Source: a virus | Taxonomy: Duplodnaviria; Heunggongvirae; Uroviricota; Caudoviricetes | Length of the DNA stretch: 39,903 bases | Strand: one strand, 5' to 3' | IMG/VR virus record: IMGVR_UViG_2718218449_000013 | Part shown: positions 27,001 to 30,000 of the stretch, piece by piece | Layout of the letters: every line of letters begins with the position of its first letter | How positions within the stretch are numbered: position 1 is the stretch's first letter | Position numbers: made by a program

Positions 27001-30000
27001 CATGTCAGTAATGGTGGCGGTCGCCTGCTTCAGCTCACTGACTTTTTTATCACGCTGTTCTTTATAGGCGATGGCGTTATCACGGTAATGATTAACCGCC
27101 CATGACTGGCAGACGATGATGCAGATAACCAGAGCGGAGATAATCGCGGTTACTCTGCTCATTGTTGCCCCCACAAACAGACTTCACGCTCAATCTCGCG
27201 GCGAGTCATCAGCCCTTTCCATTGCTTACCGCCAGCGTATGTCCAGCGCCGTAGCTGATCACATGCGCCTTTGATATCACCCTGGTTTATTTTGCGAAGA
27301 AGCGTCGATGTTCTGAAATTACCAGCGCCCACGTTGTAAACGAACGAGTAAAGAGCGCCGCGCGTTGTTTCCGGTATATCGACTTTGATGTACGGGTTAA
27401 TTTGTCTGGCGACCGTGGCAAGGTCTTTATTCAGGAGGGCTTTGCATTCTGCTTCGGTATACGTTTTACCGGGAATGATGTCTTTTCCGGTGTGTCCGTG
27501 ACATACAGTCCATACGCCAACGATATCTTCGTATGGTATGTAGCTGACACCTTCCAGGCCATCGTCACCACTCGGACCAGTGATGAGCACAGACGCTATG
27601 GCAGCAGCCCCACCACCAATAGCAGCAGCAACAGCCTTGCGTAATGATGGCGACATTATTCACCTCTCGCAGCCTTACGCTTATCTTCTTTAATCTTGAA
27701 ATAAAGGTTTGTCAGATACGTCAGCAAGCCAAACACCAAGCTACCCAATACGCCTATTGCCACCCACTGGGATGGGGAGACTTTGTCCAGCAACTGCAGT
27801 AGCCAGTATCCCGTCCCCACCGCTGACGTGGTGTATGACACACCTGTTGTTATTTTTTCCATCTGGTACATACCCCGTCTCCCGTTATCCGGAAGCTGAC
27901 AACAATAAAAAGCCACCAGTTAATTCCTGATGGCCCTGATGCATAAACGTCATAATACCTGACTGTTATGATTGACAATAATGATAATGTTTATATAGAA
28001 AGGTTCCCGATGTGTGTTACATATCATTTCTCCACGGGGAATATCCCCACGCCAGCGCAGACTCTTTTACCCGTTCTCTTCTGCGCTGGCTCTTTTTTAT
28101 TATGCTGCTGCATTTACCTCTGGCACCATGCTTTCTATCTCAACACAATACGTGGTACTTCTTGTAACCAATATCATAACGATTAATCGACATAGAATTT
28201 CTCCCGTGTACAGGAACAGAGTTAAAAAGCCGGAACCGGAATCAAATCACAGGATGACCATCTGCCAGTGGCAGGTCATAAAAAAAAGGCCGCGCCATGC
28301 GCAGCCAGAACTCACAAGGAAAATGATAGAAGGAAATAACATTAGTGATGTACGCATGGCGCCTCCCGCTAAGTTCTGCAATGATCAAACAGAACTCGCT
28401 ACGTGCCCTTAAAACTCGATCATTTAGCCCCTCCAAGGAGGATTCACCATGCGGTTGATTTTTTAATAAACAGTAAACAAAAAAGTCAAGAATTATTCAT
28501 TCTGTTCTTTCATCATCGGCCACAGCAATACCACAATGCCGCAGACCAGAGCGCCATCAGTCAGTACCAACATTATCCTGCTGGTGAAATCCATCATCAC
28601 CATCACTAAAAGCAGGATCACAACAGCAAGCAGACACAGTTTATAAAACAATGTTCAGGAAACGCATTCAGCATGCCTAAGGTTCTATTCCTACGAATAG
28701 CCAACTTGCAACTTAAAATATTATTTATGCAGCCAATTAAATTCTGGTCCTTACAATATCAACCTGAAGATTCTTATCTTGTGCTGATTGATAAATGACA
28801 AACCTTTTACTACCTGCATTGAAAGAAGTAGACAAAACCAGACAATTATCATAACGAGCAAGAACATAATACCAACCATCATTATAATTAATCATTTCAT
28901 ATTCTTTCTTAAACTGTGGTTTGTAATATCCTGTCAGAAATGAAAAAAGCCAGAAATATGCCACAAAAGCAATCATCACAATCTCAAAAAAATGTTTTTT
29001 TATAAATGGCTTATCATAGAAGCATGATACCGATAAAAATCGCCCATAAGATCTTATCGAAATTGTAACCGCCAGCGCAATCGCTGCTGACAGTAGCAAA
29101 AGAGGTACCTGAATCTTCTGTCTCAATATAGAAAACTCAATAATTGCCGGCACAAACAATAATTCCACAGCAAAATAAAGGCGAAATACATTTAGCTCTT
29201 GCATAGAATGTTTTCTTTTCACTGCGAAAAAGAATACAACACCAATACCCCAACCGATAAGAAATATAGCAATGACGATAACTGCAAAAAATAAACTTCT
29301 GGCAACATCATCAACACCTGCACCTACAATCCACCATGGGAAGCCGTAGTAAAAAGAAGTACCCCATCCATAGAAATAAGCACTCCCCCATCCAAGGCAT
29401 CCCATGTAGGCAATAAAAAGTGAAGAACTCCTGAGCAGCGCACCATCCTTCATAACCACCCCAATACAAGATGATAACATTGGCTTACAACTCATAACAA
29501 AAGCAATTCAATGCCGTCAAGAGGTTACAGGCTAAAAAAACTCTATTACATAGCAGCCAGCATGTTTACCGTACAAGTACAACTCAGGGCATAAAAAAAC
29601 CCACTCGGCAGCGGGTTTATACATTTTTTACAACATACCAAATTTGCATGAAGTATATGGCTTTTAATCCAGTTTTGCAATATTTTGCTGTAAAAATGCT
29701 GCCTTTTGTTTTGAACGTGTTCTCGTCACAAGCAATAAAGCATCACTATCAAGCTGTAGAAAAATGTGCTTCATTGCAACCCAGCGTTCAGTAAATGTCT
29801 CGGACCAGTTTTTTGTTGTCACTCCCACCAATGATGCCAGTGTCTGGTATTCATAGGCCTCACGCCCTGCAAGTTCGCTCTTCACATCCTGTGCAGCCAG
29901 CCAGATTAACGTCTTCAGGCGATCCAGTGTCTTACCTGCAATTTTTCTGTTACTTAACAAATCTTTAAACTCGCTCCATGCCCATTGCGTTATGGTGACC

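Follow-up and report, generated by a model that had tools for sequence, protein, structure and literature searches.

The virus record IMGVR_UViG_2718218449_000013 of IMG/VR (39,903 nucleotides; "the window" below means this whole stretch of DNA) carries, on the minus strand between the genes for a late antiterminator (Q) and a holin (S), an A+T-rich gene for a multi-pass membrane protein of the STM1630/TfpB family. The open reading frame (ORF) at 28737-29495 is present and encodes 252 residues. An earlier note, made from the sequence alone, had described an ORF of about 250 residues here with several hydrophobic helices and an aromatic tail, lying in the Q-S cargo slot. Both descriptions are borne out by four hydrophobic segments and five model helices, and by the Q82-type Q and P21-type holin that Pfam identifies on either side; a relative of 68% identity likewise lies between Q and holin. 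The 35-residue single-helix peptide proposed beside it proved to be a 52-residue DUF3927 ORF. The minus-strand order is Q82-type antiterminator, PR′- and tR′-like sites, the membrane-protein ORF, the DUF3927 peptide, a terminator, a pinholin, a signal-arrest-release (SAR) endolysin and Rz, as follows.

29664-30356, minus: Q82-type late antiterminator (PF06323, E 1.7e-91; PHROG 304), called Q in the phage 434 and O157 annotations
29652-29680, minus: late-promoter-like site where Q ends (TTGCAA, 17 nt, TATACT), from a consensus scan
29597-29618, minus: tR′-like intrinsic terminator (AAACCCGCTGCCGAGTGGGTTT, then a T run), from a hairpin scan; a terminator in the phage 434 annotation
29471-29524, minus: promoter-like block immediately 5′ of the membrane-protein gene, a consensus match only
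28737-29453, minus: STM1630/TfpB-family inner-membrane protein, 238 residues from the likely start M15 (longest ORF to 29495; M6 at 29480)
28493-28651, minus: DUF3927 or "TciB-like" protein of 52 residues with a TTG start and two hydrophobic segments (PF13064, PHROG 1470)
28242-28436, minus: ORF of 64 residues, counterpart of the phage 434 "putative membrane protein" CPT_434_70, of uncertain coding status
28288-28306, minus: strong intrinsic terminator closing the cassette (8 pairs, 7 of them G-C, T8), from a hairpin scan; a terminator in the phage 434 annotation
28084-28193, minus: scar of a deleted NanS-p (SASA) esterase gene, from blastn against phage 434 and the 434 annotation
27656-27871, minus: class II holin of P21 type (a pinholin), opening the lysis cassette (PF04971, E 2e-32; phage 434 and O157 annotations)
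27159-27656, minus: phage lysozyme (SAR endolysin), by profile match

The late-promoter-like site at the end of Q presumably stands where PR′ is placed in 82-type phages, and the PR′/tR′-like pair between Q and the membrane-protein ORF is the arrangement expected for a late promoter. The promoter-like block 5′ of the membrane-protein gene contains TTGACG (29520-29515), which is kept in the Escherichia albertii, Escherichia sp. and enterotoxigenic E. coli (ETEC) plasmid copies, and also TTGTTA, 18 nt and TG-n-TATCAT (29500-29471). In the consensus scan promoter-like matches in the region were as numerous as expected by chance, which applies to both candidate promoters. Translation is likely to start at M15 (29453), since homologues from other lineages, which are 236-240 residues long, align from this residue in a 24-member alignment. 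GenBank and the Prokaryotic Genome Annotation Pipeline (PGAP) both place the start at M6, 29480 (247 residues), and M1 overlaps the promoter-like element.

The earlier note could place the protein in no family. A database representative 100% identical to it carries the precomputed Pfam annotation PF27470 (TfpB), as do all 103 + 32 homologues; residues 31-252 match positions 1-222 of the 222 in the profile of PHROG 1521 (unknown function) with E 2.1e-154; and PGAP names a relative "STM1630 family protein." The family is small: a collection of 1.84 billion proteins contains 55 of its representatives at 50% identity. Its members in the Enterobacterales come from E. coli, Shigella, Citrobacter rodentium, Salmonella, Yersinia, Klebsiella, Cronobacter and Enterobacter, and those in the Pasteurellaceae from Haemophilus ducreyi, Avibacterium, Gallibacterium, Actinobacillus and Mannheimia; Neisseriaceae are also represented, and all named members examined belong to animal-associated Proteobacteria. 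The window protein shares with them a length of about 240 residues (236-245), an N-terminal aromatic/Gly motif, the helices and a C-terminal β-domain containing WYY(V/I)L.

Beyond its own family the protein resembles little. Scans of Pfam (in a copy without the PF27470 model), NCBIfam and PADLOC gave nothing significant; PADLOC-DB returned no family for either the membrane protein or the DUF3927 peptide. No match was found to PHROGs annotated for exclusion or to holin and antiholin families in Pfam and the PHROGs, and no transporter family showed sequence or fold similarity in Pfam, NCBIfam, Foldseek or PDB profile searches. As for the Pfam name, TfpB presumably goes back to an ORF of the pilin inversion region in Moraxella; none of the contexts examined showed a link to pili. 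Literature under the names TciB and TfpB yielded unrelated acronyms only, and the phage 434 genome paper states no function for the membrane-protein gene. Gene and family are thus already in the databases, with function unassigned, and are not new.

The AlphaFold2 model of the protein (24 sequences; predicted local distance difference test, pLDDT, 79; predicted template modeling score, pTM, 0.72) comprises five long helices and a C-terminal domain of five β-strands. Four hydrophobic segments exceed the hydropathy threshold; the fifth helix of the model, at the N-terminus, is weaker and rich in glycine and aromatic residues. The C-terminal tail is rich in Tyr and Trp (YYKPQFKKEYEMINYNDGWYYVLARY). 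Foldseek searches with the model against the PDB and BFVD returned nothing below E 0.28. Mcr-1, the sole sequence-profile match in the PDB (E 4.2), was rejected.

The 24 aligned members, drawn from Enterobacterales, Pasteurellaceae and Neisseriaceae, share no family-wide conserved Asp, Glu, His, Lys or Cys. The conserved positions are aromatics, Gly, Ala, Ser and two Arg, arranged in the N-terminal motif AY..GW..AY.YGW....YYG(F/Y)PWW, in ARSL, at the second Arg, and in WYY(V/I)L of the β-domain. The protein is probably not an enzyme. Mean charges of +3.0 for loop 2, +2.1 for loop 4 and −1.6 for loop 1 would, by their distribution, place loops 2 and 4 in the cytoplasm and loop 1 in the periplasm. 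Under the positive-inside rule the N-terminus is then predicted to be cytoplasmic, with the conserved loop (YYGFPWW..ARSL) and the β-domain on the periplasmic side.

At 36.3% G+C the gene is as strikingly A+T-rich as the earlier note had it, against 49.9% for the window, 46.3% for Q, 47.2% for the holin and 51.4% for the endolysin. Only 4% of 717-nt segments are equally A+T-rich, and these are located at other cargo (nleC/nleB, lpxR and an unplaced ORF at ~36.5 kb). The ratio of nonsynonymous to synonymous substitution rates (dN/dS) comes to 0.055 and 0.086 in comparisons with the copies of E. albertii and Escherichia sp., whose proteins are 97% and 94% identical (dS 0.23-0.32), and to 0.05-0.07 between copies of Salmonella subspecies. 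Each of the nine copies in the comparison is intact and A+T-rich (32-38% G+C). The low dN/dS and the nine intact copies indicate that the gene is not a decayed pseudogene, a reading ruled out by values of 0.05-0.09. Pseudogene decay and homology to a transporter had been named beforehand as findings that would defeat the proposal; dN/dS speaks against the first, and profile and fold searches did not return the second.

It is also very improbable that the gene is a functionless hitch-hiker, kept by linkage to useful neighbors or by recent spread. No phenotype has so far been reported for the Salmonella member STM1630, whose promoter has been lost in the ST313 lineage (PMC6785131), and truncated family fragments lie beside papX in a human E. 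coli isolate, as linkage or recent spread would allow. Set against this are the dN/dS of 0.05-0.09 at dS 0.2-0.8 in two independent clades, an intact ORF in every full-length context examined, and a motif conserved across Gamma- and Betaproteobacteria. The papX-associated fragment comprises 79 residues of the family C-terminus (locus L021, 4866-5105), lies directly 3′ of papX, is labeled "STM1630 family protein" by PGAP, and adjoins genes for a fimbrial usher and a fimbrial protein.

Phage 434 matches the DNA from 28400 to 29700 at 99.8% identity and E. coli O157:H7 at 100%; in the latter the identical stretch belongs to a prophage at ~0.90 Mb. The gene is annotated in phage 434, as CPT_434_68 "putative membrane protein" (UMO75332.1) followed by "TciB," and in hundreds of O157 genomes; the O157:H7 product is WP_001302581.1. 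Among 5,426 complete E. coli genomes the 1.3-kb region is nearly full length in 682, the gene is present at a coverage of at least 80% in 767, and a relative of any kind occurs in 1,197.

The surroundings of this allele were surveyed in 80 IMG/VR loci encoding the identical protein. The DUF3927 gene follows directly in 79 of these, and Q82-type Q and lpxR lie upstream in 32. For 39 other loci the upstream homology to the window covers no more than 164 nt and breaks off near the tR′ hairpin; L037, the locus inspected among them, has upstream a 207-residue ORF that we take to be a lambda-type Q. The holin lies ~0.85 kb downstream in loci without NanS-p and ~2.7 kb downstream in those with it. 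Since it is found behind Q82-type, apparently lambda-like and, for the 68% relative, 933W-type Q genes, the cassette, to judge from these comparisons, moves as a unit. Obligate linkage to lpxR was rejected, the 39 loci having an identical cassette and neither Q82-type Q nor lpxR in the upstream flank. An obligate pair of TfpB and DUF3927 was likewise rejected, DUF3927 being absent beside homologues of 68%, 59%, 57% and 46% identity; nor does it accompany the copies of E. albertii and Escherichia sp., which are 94-97% identical. DUF3927 and lpxR are therefore frequent but not obligate neighbors.

In 434B, a plaque-forming derivative of phage 434, the whole region is replaced by DLP12 DNA (PMC9119081), so that the gene is dispensable for lytic growth. 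We conclude with high confidence that the minus strand of 28288-29620 forms a self-contained moron cassette of promoter-like block, membrane-protein gene, DUF3927 gene and terminator. Deviant composition, a terminator, variable presence, different flanking Q modules and the dispensability deduced from 434B agree with this, while the promoter of its own is a candidate drawn from consensus matches and indirect transcriptome evidence.

The position of the gene suggests a role late in lytic growth, in which the first gene of the late transcript would tune lysis timing or membrane state, or guard progeny from re-adsorption to, or injection into, dying cells. The gene lies directly 3′ of PR′/tR′ and 5′ of the lysis cassette, behind three types of Q, and is kept in the plaque-forming phages 434 and 2B8. 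Such a role is nevertheless quite unlikely, given the dispensability in 434B, a full and separate set of pinholin, SAR endolysin and spanin, the lack of similarity to holins or antiholins in the family searches, and homologues on plasmids and chromosomes outside any phage context. Moreover, in public transcriptomes the presumed transcript of the gene does not track the late genes (49 of 88 samples), which suggests, with the mapping of Z-numbers inferred, that expression is independent of them. Q-driven late transcription from the prophage in the window is doubtful in any case, because the early region at ninG-recT seems to be missing. Expression solely from the late promoter is doubtful; the earlier note had described the Q-S interval as a cargo hotspot expressed from that promoter.

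In Salmonella, STM1630 has its own transcription start (PMC2639726, PMC6785131) and is among 123 genes grouped with those of Salmonella pathogenicity island 2 (SPI-2) in transcription profiling of avirulent regulator mutants (PMC2639726). Strain D23580 of ST313 has two single-nucleotide polymorphisms in the −10 box of the STM1630 promoter that disrupt it (PMC6785131), and when macrophages are infected, STM1630 is down-regulated in D23580 relative to 4/74 (bioRxiv 10.1101/450098).

More distant relatives occupy varied genomic contexts. The 68% relative lies in the order 933W-type Q, methylase, tRNAs, the gene itself, LpxR, PmrD, NanS-p, DUF1378, DUF826 and holin; this Q-to-holin interval of prophages with 933W-type Q is, we presume, the position of stx in Shiga toxin (Stx) phages. 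The lipid A remodeling genes lpxR and pmrD adjoin family members in two prophage arrangements. The same Q-S slot holds nmpC in DLP12 of E. coli K-12, where no family member is annotated. A 59% relative is found on ETEC plasmids, near the heat-stable toxin gene STb and divergent from eltAB, and a 57% relative lies amid insertion sequence (IS) elements on the Shigella virulence plasmid pINV (106 plasmids). In the ETEC loci L003-L007 (positions 1987-4714) the gene is 0.87 kb from eltA, and its upstream region shares the block CCTCTTGACG...TTTGTTATG with the prophage copy, which fits a heat-labile toxin (LT) locus carrying remnants of a lambdoid late region.

Relatives of 46-49% identity adjoin sseJ in Salmonella enterica and occur also in subspecies arizonae and diarizonae; from gene order and the PGAP family name, the one adjoining sseJ is STM1630. 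It lies at one same position in all three genomes compared. A scan of genome contigs with a narrower family alignment yielded six loci. Among housekeeping genes of H. ducreyi, Neisseria animaloris, Actinobacillus equuli, Mannheimia and Avibacterium the family is represented by a lone gene whose neighborhood differs from genus to genus. This absence of constant neighbors in each genus examined indicates that the protein has no obligate partner.

These contexts bear on whether the protein confers orphan immunity to a toxin that targets membranes, for example a colicin or microcin that forms pores, or an effector of contact-dependent inhibition or type VI secretion. Small multi-pass inner-membrane proteins that lack catalytic residues and spread on mobile elements would suit such a function, and the DUF3927 neighbor bears a colicin-related label. 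The 52-residue ORF scores 53 bits against a gathering cutoff of 25 (E 3.4e-14, residues 7-50) and is a "DUF3927 family protein" in PGAP; its match to PHROG 1470 has E 2.5e-17, and the "TciB-like" label of that PHROG (inhibition of cell division or colicin resistance) is an annotation by similarity only. No toxin gene adjoins the family in the contexts examined, conservation is far above that of typical immunity proteins, and the known immunity families in Pfam and NCBIfam show no similarity, which together make immunity decidedly improbable.

Superinfection exclusion or defense, the chief alternative though one that we consider unlikely, would have the protein, alone or with the DUF3927 peptide, block the entry of phage DNA or trigger abortive infection, as P22 SieA, T4 Imm, HK97 gp15 and lambda RexB do. 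A multi-pass inner-membrane protein without catalytic residues, encoded in a cargo hotspot of temperate phages next to a gene with the similarity-based "TciB-like" label, is what might be expected of an exclusion system. However, there is no match in PADLOC or among annotated exclusion PHROGs, and the gene resides stably as a lone chromosomal gene in Pasteurellaceae and Neisseriaceae and at the same position in the three Salmonella genomes. The putatively periplasmic loop is also nearly invariant from Neisseria to E. coli at low dN/dS, whereas proteins in an arms race usually diversify. Conservation pattern and genomic contexts lean toward a role in the envelope or in host interaction rather than in exclusion or defense.

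Our preferred reading, to which we give a probability of roughly 0.45, is that the product is a lysogenic-conversion protein of the inner membrane, non-enzymatic and able to work without a partner, which reaches a conserved envelope component from the periplasm to the advantage of the lysogen. Its five helices would cross the inner membrane from a cytoplasmic N-terminus, and the near-invariant aromatic loop and the C-terminal β-domain would face the periplasm and bind that component. Envelope properties would change as a result, and the lysogen would gain under host-associated or stationary-phase conditions. Transcription in the lysogen would start from the cassette's own promoter; in functional phages like 434 the gene might also be the first late gene after Q antitermination. 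A conserved cellular target fits the near-invariant loop, low dN/dS, chromosomal residence and association with virulence elements better than does an arms race with phages or toxins.

Several points weigh against this proposal. The structural model, at pLDDT 79, yields no functional analogy, and the topology is a positive-inside deduction rather than the prediction of a dedicated tool or an experimental result. The candidate promoter of the cassette is a consensus match of a kind no commoner than chance, and the gene mapping by Z-numbers behind the transcriptome reading is itself inferred, the expression matrix used covering 49 of 88 samples. Association with virulence loci may just reflect the collection of A+T-rich cargo in the same mobile elements. 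Deletion of STM1630 had no effect on growth in lysogeny broth (LB), and in macrophages, where two mutants were assayed, the paper's main text describes lower replication for STM2475 only (PMC6785131). An STM1630 mutant was scored hypermotile in one screen (PMC4219756); this came from un-retransduced cassette insertions, and the follow-up rebuilt such mutants cassette-free and warns that polarity may explain some effects of the first screen (PMC4219756, PMC4534456). No family member has a function assigned by experiment.

The family could, in a broader and distinctly doubtful version, be a mobile, partner-independent envelope factor repeatedly recruited into virulence elements (the Q-to-holin slot of enterohemorrhagic E. 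coli, EHEC; the ETEC LT/STb plasmids; Shigella pINV; the sseJ locus). It would act periplasmically, for example together with the lipid A remodeling of the flanking lpxR and pmrD, and alter host interaction or stress resistance. In enteric pathogens the family does sit in or beside major virulence determinants. A lysogenic-conversion envelope factor, or equally an exclusion protein, would account for one recurrent unexplained cargo gene of late operons and open a common line of study for EHEC, ETEC, Shigella and Salmonella; should no phenotype emerge, the gene is merely another conserved hypothetical.

Several features around the cassette complete the locus. The Q ORF could be extended to 30437; its annotated start reads MNTQYL. 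The 64-residue ORF at 28242-28436 has no match in a Pfam scan and overlaps the 28288-28306 terminator. Only ~25 nt of the 5′ end and ~85 nt of the 3′ end (the latter 81% identical) remain of the NanS-p gene (DUF1737-SASA), which in phage 434 is a complete 1.85-kb gene at the site of the scar; the deletion in the window is ~1.75 kb. Downstream of pinholin and endolysin, an Rz-like ORF completes the lysis cassette.

The prophage fits a defective lambdoid element of the CP-933K/Sp3 kind, of E. coli O157 type; the assignment agrees with the identity to the O157:H7 prophage at ~0.90 Mb and with the NleB, NleC, Lom and integrase genes in the window. At the tail-fiber end, an A+T-rich island on the minus strand (1710-3743) contains nleC (PF13678, a zinc protease degrading NF-kB p65) and nleB (PF24688, SseK/NleB family), which with Lom at 5567-6166 fit CP-933K/Sp3. 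Within the tail genes, but on the other strand, is an ORF for an IS3-family transposase (rve, HTH_21; 13116-14006, plus), which probably marks the insertion of an IS into the structural region.

The lipid A 3′-O-deacylase gene lpxR (PF09982, plus strand) lies within 30828-32002, between a remnant of a lambda-type Q and ylcG plus Q82. The remnant, an N-terminus at ~31931-32002, is classed as a pseudogene by RefSeq and as a fragment of Q in the 434 annotation. The block lpxR-ylcG-Q82 seems to have been inserted into an older Q gene, as is suggested by the 39 IMG/VR loci that lack Q82 and lpxR upstream, the inspected one having an intact lambda-like Q. Beyond it, little separates ninG (32661-33284) from recT (33677-34324), after which comes a YqaJ exonuclease gene (34321-35001). 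No repressor-, O- or P-like ORF of at least 120 residues was found before the integrase (37415-38485); the early and immunity region seems to be deleted and the prophage defective. Between the recombination genes and the integrase, an A+T-rich island (35931-36838, at most 38% G+C) contains an ORF of 200 residues (36167-36769, minus) that has no Pfam match and is another unplaced cargo candidate.

Among known systems, the closest are phage 434 and the O157:H7 prophage CP-933K/Sp3, which have the same neighbors as the window, with lpxR and then Q82-type Q on the upstream side and TciB/DUF3927 on the downstream side. Phage 434 differs in keeping the NanS-p esterase between cassette and holin. Salmonella STM1630 has the same architecture, with 46-49% identity over the full length, is similarly A+T-rich (36-37% G+C) and is under purifying selection; unlike the window gene it is chromosomal and outside any prophage, lacks a DUF3927 partner and shows SPI-2-grouped expression.

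In Stx phages stx sits in the Q-S interval, and like it the NanS-p esterases and nmpC of DLP12 are accessory genes of this same slot, between PR′/tR′ and the holin. The cargo there comprises a secreted toxin, an esterase that is released and a porin of the outer membrane, whereas the window product is an inner-membrane protein without recognizable activity. Small helical inner-membrane proteins expressed by phages in lysogens and excluding other phages are known in P22 SieA, T4 Imm, HK97 gp15 and lambda RexB. The window protein has no detected sequence, profile or fold similarity to these, and its STM1630/TfpB family, in contrast to them, also exists as a conserved chromosomal gene outside phages.

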